This document shows positions 8,899 through 46,611 of a stretch of DNA of 55,486 nt, in pieces. Origin of the DNA: a bacterium. GTDB taxonomy: Bacteria > Patescibacteriota > Minisyncoccia > Phycocordibacterales > GWA1-40-21. The DNA lies in assembly GCA_041308645.1 (NCBI GenBank), contig JBFZBC010000013.1, forward strand, positions 1-55,486. The letters are read 5' to 3'. The position numbers and the translations under genes are program-made. How positions within the stretch are numbered: the stretch's first letter is position 1; every line of letters begins with the position of its first letter. A model generated the notes under the pieces. That model saw only the letters and a program-made list of their open reading frames with translations, did not search any database and was not told where the DNA came from.

Positions 8899-10917
8899 AT
8901 GAATCCATACATTTGGTTTGTTTTAATCGCTTCGATTGTCGCTATTGCTTACGGCTTAGTATTAGCGAAGACTATTTTACAAAAAAGTGCCGGTAGTGCC
9001 CGCATGCAAGAAATTGCCAAGGCTATCCAAGATGGAGCTCGCGCTTATTTAAACAAACAGTACACAACAATTTCCTATATTGCTATAGCTATTTTTCTTA
9101 TAATTGGTTTTATACCAAAACTTGGCTGGGGAATGTCTATAGGTTTTATTGTTGGTGCTATATTATCTGCCCTAGCTGGTTATATCGGAATGAATGTTTC
9201 AGTCCGCGCTAATGTTAGAACAACCGAAGCAGCGAAAAGTGGTTTAAAACAAGCTCTAGATTTAGCTTTTAAAGGAGGAACAGTTACTGGACTTTTAGTT
9301 GTTGGTCTTGCTCTTCTTGGTGTTACTAGTTTTTATGTTTTGAGTGGTGGAAATGTTAATGCTCTTGTTGGTCTTGGTTTTGGAGCTTCTTTAATTTCTA
9401 TTTTTGCTAGACTTGGTGGAGGAATATTTACAAAAGCTGCAGATGTGGGTGCTGACCTTGTAGGAAAAATTGAGGCAGGAATTCCAGAAGATGACCCAAG
9501 AAACCCAGGAGTGATTGCTGATAACGTAGGAGACAATGTGGGTGACTGTGCTGGTATGGCCGCTGATTTGTTTGAAACTTATGCTGTGACTTCTGTCGCT
9601 ACCATGCTTTTAGGCTCACTTTTATTTGCTGGTTTTGAGGGTGCAATATTATATCCATTGGCAATCGGCGGTATCTCTATCTTTGCGTCAATCATTGGTA
9701 CTTGGTTTGTTAAACTTGGAAAATCACAAAATATTATGGGGGCTTTATACAAAGGTTTAATTGTCGCCGGAGTCCTTGCGGCGGCTGCCTTCTACCCTAT
9801 CACTAAAATGTTGATGGTGGATAATGGGACAGACTATACAGTGATGGATCTTTTTATCTGCTCACTTGTAGGACTAATTGTTACTGGTGCCTTAGTAATC
9901 ATCACTGAATATTTTACTTCTACCAAATACACTCCAGTTCAGTCTATAGCTAAAGCTTCAGTTTCTGGTCACGGAACAAATGTTATCCAAGGATTAGCGG
10001 TTTCTATGAAATCTACAGCTTGGCCTTTAATCACTATTGTTCTAGGTATTACCACCACATATCATTTCGGTGGACTTTACGGAATTGCTGTAGCTGCTAT
10101 GTCCATGCTTTCCATGACTGGAATTATTGTGGCAATTGATGCTTATGGACCTATCACTGATAACGCTGGTGGTATTGCGGAAATGTCTGAATTACCAAAG
10201 GAAGTTCGTGATGTTACAGATCCACTTGATGCCGTGGGTAACACTACTAAAGCCGTAACAAAAGGTTACGCTATTGGTTCTGCTGGTCTAGCGGCTCTTG
10301 TTCTGTTTGCTGCCTACACAGAAGAAATTGTAAAAGCGGAAAAAGTCATCTCTTTTGACCTTTCAAATCCATTTGTAATCATCGGACTTTTTATAGGAGG
10401 ACTTCTACCATATTATTTTGGGGCTCTTTGTATGGAAGCAGTTGGAAAGACTGCTGGTAAAGTAGTAGAAGAAGTTCGAAGACAATTTAGAGAAATAAAA
10501 GGAATCATGGAAGGGACTAGCAAACCAGATTATGCAAAATGTGTTTCTATCGTCACTGGTGCCGCTATAAAACAAATGATTATTCCAGCTTTGATTCCGG
10601 TTCTTGCTCCAATCTTGGTAATTTTAGTTTTTGGAAAAGAAAATGGTTTAGTGGTTCTCGGTGGACTTCTTATGGGTTCTATTGTTACTGGACTTTTTGT
10701 AGCTATCTCTATGACTTCCGGTGGTGGAGCCTGGGATAATGCCAAGAAATATATTGAACTTGGAAATTACGGGGGAAAGGGTGGTGATGCTCATAAGGCT
10801 GCTGTTACTGGTGATACTGTTGGGGATCCTTATAAGGATACCGCCGGTCCAGCTATCAACCCAATGATTAAAATACTCAATATCGTAGCCCTTATTATTG
10901 TTGCCTTAGTCCTTTAA
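8899..10917 (+). CDS. hppA: Membrane-bound proton/sodium-translocating pyrophosphatase
   Basis: 672 aa and polytopic. Diagnostic motifs: [68 protein letters not shown]. Confidence 0.96.
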
Positions 10918-13276: not shown

Positions 13277-13381
13277 TTTAATAATCACTACTGTTAAAAA
13301 GCTTACCCTGTAGTGAAAATTCTTATTTTCTAATACTGGGTTTTTGAGTGGCTAGAGAATCAAAAATAAAAAAATAAATTT

Positions 13382-13418
13382 AAAAATAGCCGGTTCCTTT
13401 CAGAAACCGGCTATTTTT
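13382..13418. terminator. Bidirectional intrinsic terminator shared by tig (+) and the Cas2-like gene (-)
   Basis: AAAAA-TAGCCGGTT-cctttcaga-AACCGGCTA-TTTTT. Confidence 0.8.
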
Positions 13419-13498
13419 ACCTGGCTCTTTTCCACTTAGTTCCTCGCCTTATAACTTATTCTTAGTAAATATCATCCCCCAATATTATCATATATAAT

Positions 13499-13530
13499 AT
13501 TAAAACTTTCACCTAGGTGAAAGTTTTAAT
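13499..13530. repeat. 32-bp perfect palindrome, downstream copy of cassette 1
   Basis: ATTAAAACTTTCACCT|AGGTGAAAGTTTTAAT. It lies 24 nt beyond the stop of 13555..13944 and before the terminator. Confidence 0.95.
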
Positions 13531-13554: not shown

Positions 13555-13944
13555 TTATTGAATATATTTGTGATTTTTCGAATAAGGTTTAGCTAGTTTT
13601 AATATATTTAATTTATTTAAAAAACCAATAGATTCAGCATAGTTGATAAATTCTTTTGGTAATGGTGAAGGACCCACCCAAACACCTTTTTGAATCATCG
13701 AGTAATTAAATCCTTTCAACTGGTACCTTAACCAGTCCCTCTCGCTCCTCTTGTTTGAGGGTATATCAAACATTACAATAGTATCCATTGGTAATGAGAT
13801 AGAAAAATTAAAATCAAAGTGCTTATACTCTGAATATTTTCTCTGAGTATTTTTAAATTTTTTCTTCTTATTCGTATTTGAAACAAGTATCGGTAAGCCA
13901 AAAGCATTAACTGCGACTCCCTTATATTTTAAATATTTTTTCAT
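13555..13944 (-). CDS. Cas2-like / PaaX-middle-domain-like small protein (paralog 1)
   Basis: TIVMFDIPSNKRSERDWLRYQLKGFNYSMIQKGVWVGPSPLP fits the DIP-x6-R...L-x3-GF...Q-x-(S/G)VWV-x-P pattern of the Cas2-like fold. The N-terminus is Lys-rich and there is no wHTH. It is a paralog of 20634..21017. Confidence 0.6.
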   Translation of the reverse strand: MKKYLKYKGVAVNAFGLPILVSNTNKKKKFKNTQRKYSEYKHFDFNFSISLPMDTIVMFDIPSNKRSERDWLRYQLKGFNYSMIQKGVWVGPSPLPKEFINYAESIGFLNKLNILKLAKPYSKNHKYIQ

Positions 13945-13950
13945 TCTTTA

Positions 13951-13959
13951 ATTATATCA
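13951..13959 (-). promoter_or_regulatory. Extended -10 (TGATATAAT) plus 6 nt plus ATG: leaderless promoter of paralog 1
   Basis: The minus strand reads GTGATATAAT-TAAAGA-ATG. Confidence 0.6.
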
Positions 13960-13967
13960 CAAAAATA

Positions 13968-13991
13968 AAACTTTCACCTAGGTGAAAGTTT
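13968..13991. repeat. 24-bp perfect palindrome, upstream (operator-position) copy of cassette 1
   Basis: AAACTTTCACCT|AGGTGAAAGTTT, the same core as 13499-13530. Its centre is 35.5 bp upstream of the ATG. Confidence 0.95.
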
Positions 13992-14976: not shown

Positions 14977-16140
14977 TTATTGAATTAAACTCCGTCCACT
15001 ACCACTATTATAAAGTTGGGAAACTTCAGTTGGAGTTAAAGCCCTACTCCAGATAGCGGATTCATCTATTAAACCGTCATAAGTATAGTTTGCTAAAGGA
15101 TAATAAGTAATGTGTCCAAGAGCTATTGGCTTATCGCCTGTAACGCTATTGCCACTATAGGTTCCACCTAATTGACCGTTGATATAAAGATAGTGGTTGG
15201 CATTATCGTTAACCAGCACTATATGCGTCCAGTTTGCGTTTACATTGACCCCAGTGACCGTGATGGACGGCTCCCAACCGGCGATAGATCTAAGTTCAAC
15301 ATAACTATCAGTTGCCAAAATTATAAAACTGCCATCATCATGTCCTGGTAGACAAGAAGAAAGCACAAAGCCGTTTCCTTTTGCCCAAAGAGAAATTGTT
15401 TGAACGGGGTCACTGGTCAGAGGAGTATTAACAAAATTGTCGCCGTTCGTGGGATTTACAACTTCAAAGCAGGCATCTCCCAGAAAATTATCAGTCCCGT
15501 TAAAAGTAACTGTGCCAACCTCTGTGGCATCATTCTCTCCAAAATAATCATCTATATCATTATCAAAAGGATAATATGCTACTAATCCTACTCTTAAAGC
15601 CTGACAAGTAGTGTCACAAACAATTACTTCTCCACCCTCTGCCACAGTCGTCGTCCCAATCGCAATTATAACATCGAGTTCAGCTTGAGGTGCTGTTATT
15701 ACCACTTTTTTGTTTTCTATCATTGTATAGTAACTAGTACCATTAGTAGCGGCCAAGACTTTAGTGATGAGTTTGTCTAGGAAAGAGGTTACTGGTCCTT
15801 GAGGGTCAACAGGTATAGAGACAATGTAGGTTGGGACAAGGATAGAGAGGTCAGTGAGACCATCACAGTCTACAGTATGTTCAGTAGAGGAAGCAGAACC
15901 AGTATCACAGATTTCTTCCAGAGCCGTAGTGGAGGCTGTCGCTGGATAGATACTGTTATCTATATAGTACTGGATGATAGCATTATTGATCTGTTTGATA
16001 TCAGAGGCTCTCTCGGCATTACGAGCTTGAGCTAACTGACGAGCGGGGTTGATGGCAAGTATCACTATACCAGCAAGGATGGCGATGATACCAACGACTA
16101 ATAATACTTCGAGTAATGTAAATCCTTTTTTGTTAGACAT
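14977..16140 (-). CDS. Type IV pilin with C-terminal LamG/concanavalin-A-like lectin domain
   Basis: The likely start is MSNKKGFTLLEVLLVVGIIAILAGIVILAINP (ATG at 16140; the track ORF extends to 16188). The C-terminal half has LamG_3-type landmarks: LVAYYPFDND...GENDATEVGTVTF and DGLIDESAIWSRALTPTEVSQLYNSG. Confidence 0.85.
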   Translation of the reverse strand: MSNKKGFTLLEVLLVVGIIAILAGIVILAINPARQLAQARNAERASDIKQINNAIIQYYIDNSIYPATASTTALEEICDTGSASSTEHTVDCDGLTDLSILVPTYIVSIPVDPQGPVTSFLDKLITKVLAATNGTSYYTMIENKKVVITAPQAELDVIIAIGTTTVAEGGEVIVCDTTCQALRVGLVAYYPFDNDIDDYFGENDATEVGTVTFNGTDNFLGDACFEVVNPTNGDNFVNTPLTSDPVQTISLWAKGNGFVLSSCLPGHDDGSFIILATDSYVELRSIAGWEPSITVTGVNVNANWTHIVLVNDNANHYLYINGQLGGTYSGNSVTGDKPIALGHITYYPLANYTYDGLIDESAIWSRALTPTEVSQLYNSGSGRSLIQ

Positions 16141-16295
16141 TTTTTTGACCTTATGTGGGTAAGTTAAATTAATAAAGATTAAACACAATGAGTATTATAC
16201 CCCCCCCACATAGTTTTGGCAATGGAAATAACATTAAAAAAGAAATACAGATAATTTAGATAGATTTTTATGATATTATATTATAATTATATTTA

Positions 16296-16310: not shown

Positions 16311-16886
16311 ATGATAAAAGAAACAAAACAATTATTAGTTCAAAAAAATACTCAAAACGTGACCGGACTTCACCCAGAAATATTTGGTGATTTTAGTAAC
16401 ATTAAGGGTGATATCTCAAAAATAAAAGGTAATGTTAATATACACAAAATAAAAGGTGATGCTTCTAAAATTTCTGGTCAAATAAATGGTGTCTCTGGTG
16501 AAGTCTCAAATATTTCTGGTGATGTTAGTGATATTATTGGTGACACTTCAAATATTCGAGGGTTTATATCGCCTATCTCTGGTGATATCAGTGGTATTAC
16601 TGGTGATGTCTCAAATATCTCTGGTGATGTGACAAAAATACGTGGTAATGTTAGTAAAATTTCTGGTGATGTCTCAAATATAATTGGCGATGTCGCTGAT
16701 CTATCTGGTGATGTCAGTAAACTTAGTGGAAACATAACCCGCCTCGAGGGTTATGTCAGTAATATTTCTGGTTTTGTTACAAACATCACCGGTGATGTAA
16801 CAAATATTTTTGGTGATGTGACTGGACTTGAAGGTGATGCTACAGGTATCTCTGGTGATATCAGAGAATTATTAAAAAAGAAGTAA
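16311..16886 (+). CDS. Heptapeptide-repeat protein (23 x G-D/N-V/I-S/T-x-I/L-x), no signal peptide
   Basis: After a 25-aa head, the whole protein is GDFSNIK GDISKIK ... GDVSNIS ... GDATGIS GDIRELL, followed by KKK. Confidence 0.8.
   Translation: MIKETKQLLVQKNTQNVTGLHPEIFGDFSNIKGDISKIKGNVNIHKIKGDASKISGQINGVSGEVSNISGDVSDIIGDTSNIRGFISPISGDISGITGDVSNISGDVTKIRGNVSKISGDVSNIIGDVADLSGDVSKLSGNITRLEGYVSNISGFVTNITGDVTNIFGDVTGLEGDATGISGDIRELLKKK
16386..16874 (+). repeat. Imperfect 21-bp tandem repeat array (coding, 23 units)
   Basis: Units resemble ATTTCTGGTGATGTCTCAAAT. One unit is 27 bp. The antisense track ORFs here are artefacts of the repeat. Confidence 0.9.
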
Positions 16887-20448: not shown

Positions 20449-20497
20449 ATTTTTATAATTAATTATTAATCCCGACTCACCTAATAATACAGGGTGC

Positions 20498-20538
20498 AAA
20501 AAAAAAGCAACCTTCCGGGTCAGAACCCAAAAGGTTGC
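20498..20538 (-). terminator. Intrinsic terminator of Cas2-like paralog 2
   Basis: The minus strand reads GCAACCTT-16 nt-AAGGTTGC followed by T9. Confidence 0.8.
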
Positions 20539-20590: not shown

Positions 20591-20606
20591 ATACGCCATG
20601 GCGTAT
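20591..20606. repeat. 16-bp perfect palindrome, downstream copy of cassette 2
   Basis: ATACGCCA|TGGCGTAT. It lies 27 nt beyond the stop of 20634..21017 and before the terminator. Confidence 0.95.
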
Positions 20607-20633
20607 TTAATTCATACAAATACAATAATATTT

Positions 20634-21017
20634 CTACAGATTTTTTTCTTCTTTTGAATATGGTTTGGCTAGTTTTAGAGTTCGTAACTGATCTAAAAGA
20701 CCAATAGATTTTATGTATGCAAGAAAATCTATTGGCAGTGGTGAAGGTCCGACCCAGACGCTTTTTTGAATCATAATATAGTCAAACTTTTTCAGCTGTC
20801 GGAGAAGCCATTCCCTTTCACTTCTTTTGTCATAAGGGATATCGTACATCACAATCAGATCTTTTGGTGAAGTATTTGCAAAATTAAAATCAAAGCACTT
20901 ATGGAAAGAATAACTCCGTTTTGGTGTCGATGCTAGATTTTTCTTTTTATCAGAATTAAATATAGGCAAACCAAGAGCATTAACAATCACTCCTTTATAT
21001 TTAAAATGTTTCCTCAT
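20634..21017 (-). CDS. Cas2-like / PaaX-middle-domain-like small protein (paralog 2)
   Basis: LIVMYDIPYDKRSEREWLLRQLKKFDYIMIQKSVWVGPSPLP. More than half of the positions are identical to 13555..13944 by eye, including the N-terminal KYKGV-VNA-GLPI and the C-terminal LKLAKPYSK. Confidence 0.6.
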   Translation of the reverse strand: MRKHFKYKGVIVNALGLPIFNSDKKKNLASTPKRSYSFHKCFDFNFANTSPKDLIVMYDIPYDKRSEREWLLRQLKKFDYIMIQKSVWVGPSPLPIDFLAYIKSIGLLDQLRTLKLAKPYSKEEKNL

Positions 21018-21023
21018 CTTTCG

Positions 21024-21032
21024 ATTATATCA
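21024..21032 (-). promoter_or_regulatory. Extended -10 (TGATATAAT) plus 6 nt plus ATG: leaderless promoter of paralog 2
   Basis: The minus strand reads GTGATATAAT-CGAAAG-ATG. Confidence 0.6.
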
Positions 21033-21044
21033 CTCTCCATTAAA

Positions 21045-21060
21045 ATACGCCATGGCGTAT
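21045..21060. repeat. 16-bp perfect palindrome, upstream (operator-position) copy of cassette 2
   Basis: ATACGCCA|TGGCGTAT. Its centre is 35.5 bp upstream of the ATG, the same spacing as cassette 1. Confidence 0.95.
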
Positions 21061-44129: not shown

Positions 44130-44279
44130 AGAATAATACAAGAAAATATCCTACTTCACAGACAAGGGAATCTCCACATAGAAAGTGGTACCTTGACCAC
44201 GACCTGCTGATTCGGCCCAGACCTTACCACCATGACCTTCTACTATCTTCTTTACAATATATAAGCCATAACCGGTACT
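44130..44279 (-). pseudogene. Orphan duplicate of the histidine kinase 3' end (direct repeat copy A)
   Basis: 147/150 identical to 44989-45138. It still encodes the same 42 aa (STGYGLYIVKKIVEGHGGKVWAESAGRGQGTTFYVEIPLSVK) plus the stop, but has no upstream kinase body. Confidence 0.9.
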
Positions 44280-44343: not shown

Positions 44344-44892
44344 TTAAAAAGTCGCAAATTTATTTACTAAGACAGATGATGACTGCGTTTTTTGATTCTT
44401 TAAGATCAAATCAGAATATGAAAAAGGAACAACTTTTTCTGAATCAATCTTTAATAATTTTAATACTTCATTAAACTCTATAAGGCCTTTTTGTTTAGAA
44501 ATATTTTTAATAACTGTTTCTAATTCTAAAAAATTTCCCAATCTCATAACCTTATCTAAATGAATTCTTGTATTTTTATATATCCACAATTTTCTTAATT
44601 TATCCACAATACACAAAACTTTCTTTTGTTTTAACAAATCTTTTTTTTCTTTTTTGCTAATTTCTTGAATCTCATACTTCGACTCTTTCCGACCAAGGAT
44701 CTCATCCCGGCTGTAAGATATTTTCTGTATCTCTTTTCCATTAATCTCTCTAATTTTTTCTTTATAAATTCCTAGACTAAGGTAATAATCAGTTTGATGC
44801 ATATCATACTTGTACACAGCTTGAGTTTTTTCTATGATATTTATAATACCATCAATATCCTGTATTTTTACCTTTATCTCAAAATTTTTCAT
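44344..44892 (-). CDS. CYTH-domain protein (class IV adenylate cyclase CyaB / triphosphatase family)
   Basis: N-terminal FEIKVKI is an ExExK-type motif. QTDYYL, then KLRKLWIYKNTRIHLDKVMRLGNFLELE, with a C-terminal FSYSDLI. The order parallels CyaB. Confidence 0.72.
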   Translation of the reverse strand: MKNFEIKVKIQDIDGIINIIEKTQAVYKYDMHQTDYYLSLGIYKEKIREINGKEIQKISYSRDEILGRKESKYEIQEISKKEKKDLLKQKKVLCIVDKLRKLWIYKNTRIHLDKVMRLGNFLELETVIKNISKQKGLIEFNEVLKLLKIDSEKVVPFSYSDLILKNQKTQSSSVLVNKFATF

Positions 44893-44988: not shown

Positions 44989-45138
44989 AGAATAATACAA
45001 GAAAATATTCTACTTCACAGACAAGGGAATCTCCACGTAGAACGTGGTACCTTGACCACGACCTGCTGATTCGGCCCAGACCTTACCACCATGACCTTCT
45101 ACTATCTTCTTTACAATATATAAGCCATAACCGGTACT
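44989..45138 (-). repeat. Direct repeat copy B (authentic 3' end of the histidine kinase gene plus 21 nt)
   Basis: See 44130-44279; the offset is exactly 859 bp. Confidence 0.9.
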
Positions 45139-46611
45139 TTGAACATTTACTCTCAATGATTCTTCACCTCTTCCTCCCTCTTTAAATAGTTTTCCTTTAT
45201 CATCCTCAGATAAACCTATTCCACTGTCTATTATAGAAAAAGATATTTTCTTTCCATTAGTTTTAAGATTTACTTTTACAAAACCGGAAATTGTGTATTT
45301 TATAGAATTATCAATCAGATTTTTTATTACTTGAGTCAAGTGTAATTTATCAATCTTAACAAAGATCTTTTCTTGTGGCAGATTTATTTCTAGATTAAGA
45401 CCTTTCTTCACGGCATTATCTTTAAACATTTCAGCTATCCCTCTCACAAATTCAGTAAAATCCGTTTCTTCAAAATTATATGTCATCTTACCACTTCTTA
45501 AGCTTGAAGCATGAAGAATTTCTTGGACCATGGCCACCGCCTGATTATCAGAGTCCATCCCTTGCTCCACAATCTCCTTAACTGGACCTGATACTTCACC
45601 CACATCCCCTTCTAAAATGGAAGAAAAAACCATCTTTGACTTAGTAAAGAAACCTTTAACTTGATGAGTGATAAAGCGGATCAAAAGTTGTTGATTATTA
45701 TTGGCAATTTCAAGTTCCTCCCGTAAGGCCACCTCCTTTTTCACACTTCGAATAATGATAAGTCCCAACCAACCAGAAATAACCAAAGTAATAGCGGTCA
45801 AAATTCTATTCACATTACTCTGGATAAAGAAAAACTGTGCCCCAATAAGTATCAGTAACGCCCACACAAGTGCCTGTGTCGCCAGTAATTTAATATCAAA
45901 GGTTTTAAACCGTACAATCATATAAGCTAGGAAAGCCATAAATATGACCATCCCAAATAAACCGTAGAATTCAATATTATAATTTTCTAAATAACTGGCA
46001 ATATACCCAAGAGAAAGAAACAATAATAAGAATAATTCCAAACCAATAGCCATAAAAATAGCCTCTTTTTTTGTTATATTTATTTTTTTCCACCAACTGG
46101 ATATTAATAACCCTAAAATACCAGTCATCGCCAGCCCACCAACAATATAATAATAAGTAACCAAATAAATATTATTGATTGCTTCACAATTAACTAGGTC
46201 AAAATATTTAATATTTAAAATTGTTGGTGTTAATATTAGAATTGGTAACAAAGGAGAAAAGATTAGTATTTTCTTAATTAGATTTAAATCTCTTTGAAAC
46301 ATGAAGACATAAAAAAAGTAAAGAGTAAGTATCGCTATTAATGCTGTCAAAAGCGGAAAAAACGCCCAAACAAAAGAAATAATCAAGGAGGTGTCATTTA
46401 CCCAAGCAATTAAATTAAAAAATACCCAAACTGAGAAAAAAACAGAGATAAATAGTAATATTTTACTAACTAGATTCTTACTTTTTACGTAGACAAATAA
46501 TCCTAAAATCAGTGCGATCAATACTGCTGGAATATGAGTATAATAAAGCAATCTCGGTGCTTCACTCGTAATTATTAAGTATGTAGGATGCCAAGATTCT
46601 ATACAATACAT
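45010..46611 (-). CDS. Sensor histidine kinase with N-terminal multi-TM sensor; no response regulator nearby
   Basis: About 8 TM helices, then a DHp (RFITHQVKGFF). The HATPase_c N, G1 and G2 boxes are NLIDNSIKYT, DSGIGL and STGYGLYIVKKIVEGHGG. Confidence 0.9.
   Translation of the reverse strand: MYCIESWHPTYLIITSEAPRLLYYTHIPAVLIALILGLFVYVKSKNLVSKILLFISVFFSVWVFFNLIAWVNDTSLIISFVWAFFPLLTALIAILTLYFFYVFMFQRDLNLIKKILIFSPLLPILILTPTILNIKYFDLVNCEAINNIYLVTYYYIVGGLAMTGILGLLISSWWKKINITKKEAIFMAIGLELFLLLFLSLGYIASYLENYNIEFYGLFGMVIFMAFLAYMIVRFKTFDIKLLATQALVWALLILIGAQFFFIQSNVNRILTAITLVISGWLGLIIIRSVKKEVALREELEIANNNQQLLIRFITHQVKGFFTKSKMVFSSILEGDVGEVSGPVKEIVEQGMDSDNQAVAMVQEILHASSLRSGKMTYNFEETDFTEFVRGIAEMFKDNAVKKGLNLEINLPQEKIFVKIDKLHLTQVIKNLIDNSIKYTISGFVKVNLKTNGKKISFSIIDSGIGLSEDDKGKLFKEGGRGEESLRVNVQSTGYGLYIVKKIVEGHGGKVWAESAGRGQGTTFYVEIPLSVK

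Follow-up and report, generated by a model that had tools for sequence, protein, structure and literature searches.

Contig JBFZBC010000013.1 (GenBank assembly GCA_041308645.1), a complete contig of 55,486 bp with a G+C content of 33.9%, comes from a metagenome-assembled genome (MAG) of a patescibacterium and is referred to here, at its full length, as the window. It carries on its minus strand two small paralogous genes, each bracketed by a pair of palindromes of its own; we call a gene with its palindromes a cassette. The gene of cassette 1 (13555–13944, 129 residues) lies between an upstream palindrome at 13968–13991, made of the halves AAACTTTCACCT and AGGTGAAAGTTT, and a downstream palindrome at 13499–13530, which is perfect over 32 bp and whose core in common with the upstream copy spans 13503–13526. 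The gene of cassette 2 (20634–21017, 127 residues) lies between an upstream palindrome at 21045–21060, with the halves ATACGCCA and TGGCGTAT, which we regard as a candidate operator, and a second copy at 20591–20606, which starts 27 nt 3′ of the stop codon and which we propose as a second binding site. This second copy stands apart from, and ahead of, a canonical intrinsic terminator (20497–20538, minus strand; 14-bp stem at 20507–20538, 4-nt loop, T9). The upstream dyad of each cassette precedes the ATG by 35.5 nt, and between the two stands an extended −10 element, GTGATATAAT (13951–13960 and 21024–21033, minus strand), with 6 nt separating it from the ATG; the cassette 2 dyad falls 22–23 bp before the −10 hexamer. 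The distance from dyad to dyad is 465 bp in cassette 1 and 454 bp in cassette 2. The two proteins are 60% identical over 126 residues (E = 3e-50). Each palindrome pair is exact and private: neither the cassette 2 sequence (ATACGCCATGGCGTAT) nor the cassette 1 sequence (AAACTTTCACCTAGGTGAAAGTTT) has a third match in the window at three or fewer mismatches, with 0.09 and 0.00 matches, respectively, expected by chance. A first-pass annotation, made from the sequence alone, had described the paralogy (by eye, more than half of the residues identical), the common layout with its different palindromes, the spacings to the start and stop codons, the position ahead of the T9 terminator, the conserved promoter element, and both dyad distances, and all of these proved accurate.

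Both open reading frames (ORFs) match the Pfam profile PaaX_M (PF20803), the Cas2-like central domain of PaaX, with E values of 2.6e-10 and 2.1e-12 (40.7 and 47.4 bits; cut-off 24). Matches to the Cas2 profiles themselves are marginal. With PF09827 (cut-off 23.8) the cassette 2 protein scores 24.9 bits and the cassette 1 protein 17.9 bits, below the cut-off; with TIGR01573 both fall short (22.9 and 19.9 bits; cut-off 24.5), and PADLOC returns weak Cas2 matches only. Neither protein matches PaaX_C, and the chain ends approximately 12 residues past the Cas2-like domain. An AlphaFold2 model of the 127-residue protein, built from an alignment with 121 relatives (mean predicted local distance difference test [pLDDT] score, 81.5), places the KYKGV.VN motif in a β-hairpin (residues 5–12), which is followed by a basic linker, modelled with low confidence, that runs to residue 50 and then by a β-α-β-β-α-β ferredoxin domain of Cas2 type (residues 54–115). 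The top Foldseek matches of this model in the PDB are Cas2 chains (E = 0.013, probability 1.0), but with template modeling scores of just 0.35–0.5; a sequence search of the PDB gave marginal Cas2 matches alone, with E of 0.1 or more. The counterpart of the Cas2 acidic residue, D59, which sits in a Y-D-I-P loop, is nearly invariant among proteins of this short form, as is K64. The short family comprises at least 1,407 clusters at 90% identity, whose members, where named, are called "Cas2," "PaaX," or hypothetical. Its genome matches are to Paceibacteria, Nomurabacteria, and Taylorbacteria MAGs, often two or three per MAG. We found no description of the family in the searchable literature on Cas2-like, PaaX-like, or palindrome themes in Patescibacteria. 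A phage or plasmid origin was considered and rejected: there are no relatives in viral contigs, no match in PHROG, and nothing from PADLOC beyond the weak Cas2 hits. Judged from their sequences and those of their sites, the window proteins appear to belong to a family, so far undescribed, whose members would bind DNA at specific sites and probably regulate the genes that encode them.

The pairing of gene and palindrome extends far beyond the window. We compared approximately 200 related loci, all from MAG and metagenome assemblies, with start codons assigned by motif; 80 of these, from Paceibacteria-type MAGs, were fetched via the protein and form a gene-first sample that is unbiased as to palindrome. 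In that sample a strong palindrome is centred 28–48 nt before the ATG (mode, 34–35 nt) in 65 of 77 family genes, compared with 2 of 354 other genes at the same loci, and a strong palindrome lies within 90 nt after the stop codon in 56 of 80 family genes, compared with 21 of 357 others. The association that the first-pass annotation had proposed from two cassettes thus holds across the family and greatly exceeds what chance would give. Where both copies are present, the inner 10-nt half-sites of the upstream and downstream palindromes are identical in 55 of 67 cassettes; the second copy is found 3–60 nt after the stop. Dyad-to-dyad distances in related loci range from 406 to 487 bp and, by eye, give no sign of helical phasing.

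The upstream copy stands in a fixed relation to a promoter. Of 122 cassettes, 119 have a −10-like hexamer; the gap between its end and the start codon is exactly 6 nt in 69 of the 119 and 6–8 nt in 98. In 90 of 103 cassettes the dyad precedes the hexamer by 22–23 bp. The dyad is thus at about −34.5, standing in for a −35 box, and the two spacings together imply that the palindrome occupies the −35 position of what would be a leaderless or nearly leaderless promoter. This coupling to a −10 element is confined to the upstream copy, on its gene-facing side, and is lacking at downstream copies and at solitary copies (see below). We rejected the possibility that these other copies are hidden promoters, since no −10 element is found at 22–23 bp from them save for a weak bump (at solitary copies, 9 of 188 directions), and we regard the antisense TACAAT beside cassette 2's downstream copy as coincidental. 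Separately, we observed that genes neighbouring the cassettes in many loci also begin right after TGATATAAT, with almost no leader; at one locus (L181, 1800–1830, minus strand) TGATATAAT directly abuts the ATG of the neighbouring gene. Such starts suggest that leaderless transcription may be common in these genomes.

One half-site underlies all of the palindromes. Among 98 nonidentical cassettes, with positions numbered from p10 to p1 and p1 adjoining the dyad, it reads A-T/A-n-T-A/n-C-G/A-C-C/T-A. Conservation is strongest at p3 (C in 98 of 98), p7 (T in 97), p10 (A in 97), and p1 (A in 95), whereas p2, p6, p8, and p9 vary. This interleaving of conserved and variable positions, mirrored between halves and between copies, is what we would expect of a conserved dimer with variable specificity residues, and is unlike a hairpin that need only fold. 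Paralogues from the same MAG usually differ at one to six of the ten half-site positions (the two window cassettes differ at five), with one pair, L056 and L071, identical.

The variable position p2 tracks a single residue of the protein. Residue 62, numbered as in the 127-residue protein, directly follows the conserved Y-D-I-P loop, three residues after D59 and two before K64. Where p2 is C (palindrome centre CCATGG), residue 62 is acidic in none and nonacidic in 75 cassettes, and where p2 is T or G (centres CTATAG and CGATAG), it is acidic (D or E) in 17 and nonacidic in 2; loci L081–L200 are biased to one palindrome type, which inflates the C class of this comparison and leaves the sister contrasts that follow unaffected. 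On a tree built without the residue 62 column, residue and base switch jointly in five of six pure, independent sister contrasts. Examples are L038 (E with T) against L044 (H with C); L074 (D with T) against L037, L041, and L200 (H with C); L009 (E with G) against L007 (T with C); and L033 (E) against L101 (H). A clade linked to typA/fusA, with E, and its sister clade, with S, Q, F, or H, provide another example. The rule holds at asymmetric centres such as CGATAG and in relatives with a longer N terminus (described below): P0122 (E, GCTATAGC), P0128 (E, GCTATCGC), P0123 (Q, GCCATGGC), and P0161/P0204 (E, ACGATCGT). In the window, Y62 of cassette 2 pairs with a CCATGG centre; L066 follows the rule, and L024 and L011 are exceptions to it. 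Only the pair of p2 and residue 62 survived the sister-contrast test. Global mutual information between linker residues 33–43 and p8/p9 was set aside as confounded by phylogeny, the clustering being too coarse. Acidic side chains opposite A or C, and H, Y, S, or T opposite G, represent ordinary major-groove hydrogen-bond chemistry. The same loop of Escherichia coli Cas2 (Asn10, Arg14, and Arg16) touches the prespacer duplex symmetrically across the dimer (PMC6395717). From the co-variation at residue 62 and these loop contacts we infer that the palindrome centre is read by a Cas2-like dimer seated on the dyad. The idea that protein and palindrome have evolved together, put forward in the first-pass annotation from two cassettes, is borne out by a single half-site varied across the 98 cassettes and by the tracking of p2.

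The cassettes appear to be long-term residents of their positions. Loci fall into groups with common flanking genes, one at topA/dprA and another located in the rpsL-rpsG-fusA region among them, and the related loci examined, including those beside truB/hisS, have housekeeping surroundings. Inside orthologous groups the arms vary (ATACGCCA, TTCACCA, GTAAGCCA, GTTCGCCA), and the four half-sites of each cassette are still matched to one another. A further comparison is with L210, a syntenic relative of cassette 2 with the order hisS-truB-cassette and a protein 85% identical. Both palindromes are unchanged there, while the intergenic DNA just outside them has diverged and the terminator stem has undergone compensatory changes. 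We therefore suggest that the palindromes are under purifying selection.

To account for the sites, their geometry, their conservation, their association with the family, and the co-variation of residue with base, all of which are observed, we think it probable, if far from certain, that a Cas2-fold dimer binds its own palindromes, that binding at the upstream site regulates the dimer's own gene, probably by repression, and that the second site is an auxiliary operator or an insulator. Each cassette would encode a small homodimeric protein that binds DNA sequence specifically by means of a Cas2-type ferredoxin fold, and the flanking palindromes would be the binding sites of that protein, with the dimer placed on the dyad. 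Reading of the central base pairs would fall to the β1-α1 loop (Y-D59-I-P-x62-x-K64), and that of the outer, variable positions to the N-terminal arm or basic linker. In a promoter that is leaderless and of the extended −10 type, the upstream site would take the place of the −35 element, so its occupancy should feed back on transcription of the gene itself, and repression seems the likeliest outcome, as with PaaX at the Px promoter. The copy behind the stop codon would be a second cognate site, probably an auxiliary operator that loops or insulates the gene of approximately 450 bp. Such an arrangement would recall the looping systems of lac (O1, O2, and O3), gal, and deo, in which a primary operator at the promoter (putative here) is joined by identical sites hundreds of base pairs away, inside or behind the coding region (as in L016); in a large family such as this one, by contrast, the second site is an almost constant feature.

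Longer relatives suggest where such a protein may have come from. A profile search of 1.8 billion representatives, with the superfamily clustered at 50% identity, gave 1,990 clusters, most of them of 155–200 residues with the Cas2-like domain at the C terminus. In their N termini the sequence pattern is that of a recognition helix with a wing, and there are weak winged-helix matches as well. These longer proteins thus resemble the repressor PaaX minus its ligand-binding end. A model of one of them, P0122 (pLDDT 93.9), has a helix, the YKG hairpin, a recognition helix, a wing, a linker helix, and the Cas2-like domain, and it matches E. coli PaaX best in the PDB (8a39), followed by MarR-type regulators and Cas2. 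When long and short forms are aligned, the short form is without helix 1, the recognition helix, and the wing: the winged helix of the PaaX family is missing from the 127-residue model and present in the relatives of 155–200 residues. The Asp equivalent to D59 is invariant in the 63-sequence alignment that joins the two forms. In all six long forms for which we read the DNA, the gene is bracketed by a common element, and in five of these the element is a palindrome; the sixth, P0192 at L213, has a common 21-nt element that contains an 8-bp palindrome, ACAGCTGT. Since all six are bracketed, we conclude that bracketing is ancestral and that the window proteins belong to a shortened lineage that lost helix 1, the recognition helix, and the wing and kept its cognate sites. 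In L213 (560–600 and 1095–1135), whose P0192 is a distant relative, more than a palindrome is common to the two flanks: they carry a direct repeat of 21 nt, TACAGCTGTnAATTATGATAA, which takes in the −10 region.

On this evidence the closest family appears to be PaaX, a GntR-type repressor of phenylacetate catabolism (PDB 8a39, 3L09), which represses its own promoter through steric hindrance of RNA polymerase (PMC9493321). The two have in common the central Cas2-like dimerisation domain (PF20803), the order of winged helix and Cas2-like domain in the relatives of 155–200 residues, and self-repression by blocking of RNA polymerase, the mechanism that we propose for the upstream palindrome. They differ in that the window proteins are without the C-terminal effector (phenylacetyl-CoA) domain and without most of the winged helix, and have no paa genes nearby; in that the operator is a compact palindrome of 16–30 bp on the dyad and not the TGATTC-N27-GAATCA of PaaX; and in that the Cas2-like loop itself appears to read bases and the gene is bracketed by two sites. 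Unusual, then, would be the reading of bases by a Cas2-like loop, the bracketing of a gene by sites of its own, and the apparent spread of those sites. The likeness to the Cas2 of CRISPR systems would consist of the predicted ferredoxin fold, with its conserved acidic residue at the end of β1, a dimer that lays duplex DNA across its β1-α1 loops (as we propose here), and a stretch of DNA with short palindromic repeats on either side. We conclude from sequence that the window proteins are not CRISPR Cas2, because there is no cas1 among the neighbours, no regularly spaced repeat array in the window (the "spacer" would be the gene itself), and only profile scores at or below the cut-offs; moreover, Cas2 contacts the DNA backbone only, whereas the contact here looks base specific.

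Several observations weigh against self-regulation through a plain operator. The TG of an extended −10 element is present in only 33 of 119 promoters, which would leave room for activation in place of repression. The 127-residue form, being without most of the winged helix, would have to bind through the Cas2-like domain and a disordered basic arm in the predicted structure, and we know of no precedent for base-specific reading by a Cas2 fold. The protein seems to have no ligand-sensing domain and no evident target besides itself. The remaining difficulties concern the palindromes. A third or fourth cognate copy lies within 3 kb in 7 of 80 loci, and a plain operator leaves these unexplained; often these extra copies sit on the distal side of a neighbouring gene, which is thereby bracketed as well (L001, L005, L007, and L008). 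In L013, L015, and L016 the family gene carries its own palindrome within its linker as a clean in-frame insertion of 27 nt (L016, 3087–3110) that encodes SEVRHGELR in the disordered segment and is not present in L010, L014, and L017; point mutation cannot produce such an insertion. L016 thereby has four cognate copies within 600 bp, at about −125, −35, +98, and +452. A metagenome scan with one 20-mer, ATATACGCCATGGCGTATAT, found at least 120 loci, where less than one was expected by chance; among the matches listed, 45 are beside a family gene and 75 are solitary, again more than a plain operator would predict. Finally, perfect palindromy with arms specific to each copy continues far past the common core, up to 54 bp. 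Half-lengths reach 15 nt or more in 46 of 104 solitary, 31 of 67 upstream, and 15 of 51 downstream copies, with a maximum of 27 nt, and orthologous solitary sites can show compensatory change (tctgaaat...atttcaga in L113, tccgaaat...atttcgga in L143). Growth of a strong palindrome by template switching is a possible neutral cause of the long arms.

Extra and spreading copies bring to mind the repetitive extragenic palindromic (REP) elements and their REP-associated tyrosine transposases (RAYTs). A gene between two cognate repeats, specific pairing of each paralogue with its own class of repeat, and single-copy, syntenic, vertically inherited genes are hallmarks of RAYT genes, and all three have their likeness here, as do further repeats behind stop codons and between convergent genes. 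It is accordingly conceivable, and we would give the idea a real though clearly minor share of the probability, that the protein is a domesticated, vertically inherited mobiliser on a Cas2 fold: as a nuclease or recombinase dependent on metal, it would cut its cognate palindrome at the dyad or close by and in this way maintain, homogenise, and occasionally copy the palindromes and, with them, whole cassettes. Its binding upstream would still autoregulate, so that the two explanations overlap. The additional copies that bound neighbouring genes, the in-frame insertion, and the solitary copies in diverse contexts would all fit such an activity. So would changes in the position of the cassette itself, for the order A-palindrome-gene-palindrome-B-palindrome-C in L181 corresponds to A-B-palindrome-gene-palindrome-C in L038, and in L193 a cassette lies between a DEAD helicase gene and rpmB, a site that has neither cassette nor palindrome in L034, L055, and L078. 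The near invariance of Asp59, so close to residue 62, leads us to suppose, as a minority view, that an enzyme of Cas2 fold might create and maintain its own repeats by nicking or cutting at the dyad through a pair of Asp59 residues, a counterpart of the REP/RAYT system without an HUH enzyme. If this were true, the family would be the first case outside CRISPR in which a protein of Cas2 type has its own palindromic repeat and recognises it base-specifically, and possibly a living model for the first association of Cas2 with palindromic repeats.

The evidence on the other side is considerable. Pfam and NCBIfam detect no HUH, tyrosine-recombinase, or other known transposase motif in the window proteins, and because there is no HUH domain we take it that they are not RAYTs; the fold is Cas2-like and not that of an HUH/Y1 enzyme such as the IS200-like TnpA. 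RAYT repeats number tens to hundreds, whereas those described here are perfect, loop-less palindromes apparently present in a few copies per genome at most, with none further in the window and few nonselected copies in 715 kb around the selected sites of related metagenome loci. The paralogues within a genome, at about 60% identity, are old and not products of recent transposition. Nor do the flanks carry a target-site duplication or direct-repeat signature: identity past the core is 0.40 in direct and 0.39–0.42 in inverted register, and an origin of the paired copies as direct repeats or target duplications was rejected on this ground. Together with the synteny across genera, these features also set the cassettes apart from insertion sequences. 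Viral contigs hold no relatives, and the long forms resemble ordinary winged-helix regulators. Solitary copies were also considered as scars of decayed cassettes, a possibility we rejected since no remnant of a family gene lies within 700 nt at any of approximately 75 sites.

The solitary copies invite a third explanation, which we regard as improbable: that the protein is mainly a boundary or roadblock factor, bound to palindromes at the 3′ ends of genes (its own among them) and there acting as a block or insulator against transcription or replication from either side, as a palindromic site can, with the upstream site only setting its level. Solitary sites are intergenic, more often between convergent (25) than divergent (11) genes, and cluster 12–22 nt behind stop codons, a position like that of the second copy in cassettes; neither class has a −10 element at operator distance, hence neither would be a promoter. 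The window itself is hard to reconcile with such a factor. Both of its cassettes have canonical terminators just past the palindrome (that between the trigger-factor gene and cassette 1, at 13381–13419, is bidirectional and apart from the palindrome), and no solitary copy occurs in it. The genes beside solitary sites are without a common function (92 clusters among 103 genes), and nothing in this explanation accounts for the need for two to four specificities per genome. A related proposal, that solitary copies are bidirectional terminators of the A-run/T-run kind, was rejected by counting T-runs, which occur at 29% of them against a background of 21%. With the separate T9 terminator of cassette 2, which lies approximately 60 nt beyond a downstream palindrome that is followed by GTGGTAGTAG and not by a direct T-run, this agrees with the first-pass view that the palindromes are not generic terminators, even though the cassette 1 copies, such as that at 13499–13530, score as terminator-like.

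Very unlikely, in our judgment, is an element that acts in RNA, in which the palindromes would be transcript hairpins processed or stabilised by an RNA-binding protein or ribonuclease related to Cas2 and VapD. Ribonuclease activity has been reported for proteins of both kinds, the downstream copy lies within the 3′ untranslated region ahead of the terminator, and palindromy extends well past a protein-sized footprint. Against this, the upstream copy, at the −35 position of a leaderless promoter, would be outside the mRNA of its gene; mismatches in the arms show no bias toward G-U wobble (on the downstream sense strand, 15 GT against 12 AC); and the p2 rule fits readout of base pairs in duplex DNA and is valid at asymmetric centres. 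No Rfam family and no tRNA gene was found in the window, which is otherwise dense housekeeping sequence. That the palindromes are ordinary terminators, restriction-type sites, or assembly artefacts is scarcely credible, for although some score as terminators and their centres resemble NcoI (CCATGG) and AvrII (CCTAGG) sites, the exact duplicates occur nowhere else in the window, the family-wide association has a fixed spacing, residue and base co-vary, L210 keeps both copies, and the same layout recurs in independent assemblies from many studies. The first-pass annotation had raised the possibility of a motif over-represented genome-wide; the palindromes are instead rare, family specific, and absent elsewhere from the window, but they are not restricted to family genes, as the 75 solitary matches among at least 120 loci make plain.

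The scale of the family is considerable, with a superfamily of approximately 2,000 clusters at 50% identity and two or three or more copies in tiny, regulator-poor Patescibacteria genomes. If a self-regulating Cas2-fold dimer is the correct explanation, it would open a way into the regulation of genes in ultra-small bacteria that have not been cultivated. It would also supply a testable recognition code in which residue 62 pairs with base pair p2, although sequence reading is not known from this fold, and in the very loop by which Cas2 holds the prespacer. A bracketed gene, solitary sites behind other genes, and a site within the gene's own coding sequence would join the biology of transcription factors to that of repeat elements such as REP/RAYT and CRISPR. 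Small orthogonal pairs of protein and palindrome could, in addition, be useful parts for synthetic biology.

A few further observations concern the palindromes and the remainder of the window. Two specificity types, ATATACGCCATGGCGTATAT and ATCTACGC[T/C]A...TAGAT, occur within about 60 nt of each other on stretches that have no family gene, at L091 (about 10508–10590), L165 (about 2500–2600), and L131 (about 138–210). In a Nomurabacteria MAG (L026, 349–382) there is a perfect inverted pair containing GCCGTCTGAA, known as the Neisseria DNA-uptake sequence; the pair is probably a coincidence or an ordinary terminator. The cassettes of the window have housekeeping neighbours, as the first-pass annotation had remarked of the truB-adjacent copy: trigger factor, rsmE, a pilin-like LamG protein, typA, an RRM protein, truB, and hisS. 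The gene for the LamG protein, which is type IV pilin-like (14977–16188), adjoins an ORF of 191 residues (16311–16886, plus strand), nearly the whole of which consists of about 16 tandem 21-nt repeats encoding seven residues like G-D-V-S-N-I-S, and which gives weak coiled-coil-type Pfam matches only. Elsewhere in the window a direct repeat of 150 nt, 98% identical between its copies at 44130–44279 and 44989–45138, flanks a CYTH-domain gene (44344–44892, minus strand). The 3′ end of a histidine-kinase gene (45010–46611) makes up the second copy, and a noncoding duplicate of that end makes up the first, a layout suggestive of an insertion or duplication of 859 bp with which the CYTH gene arrived.

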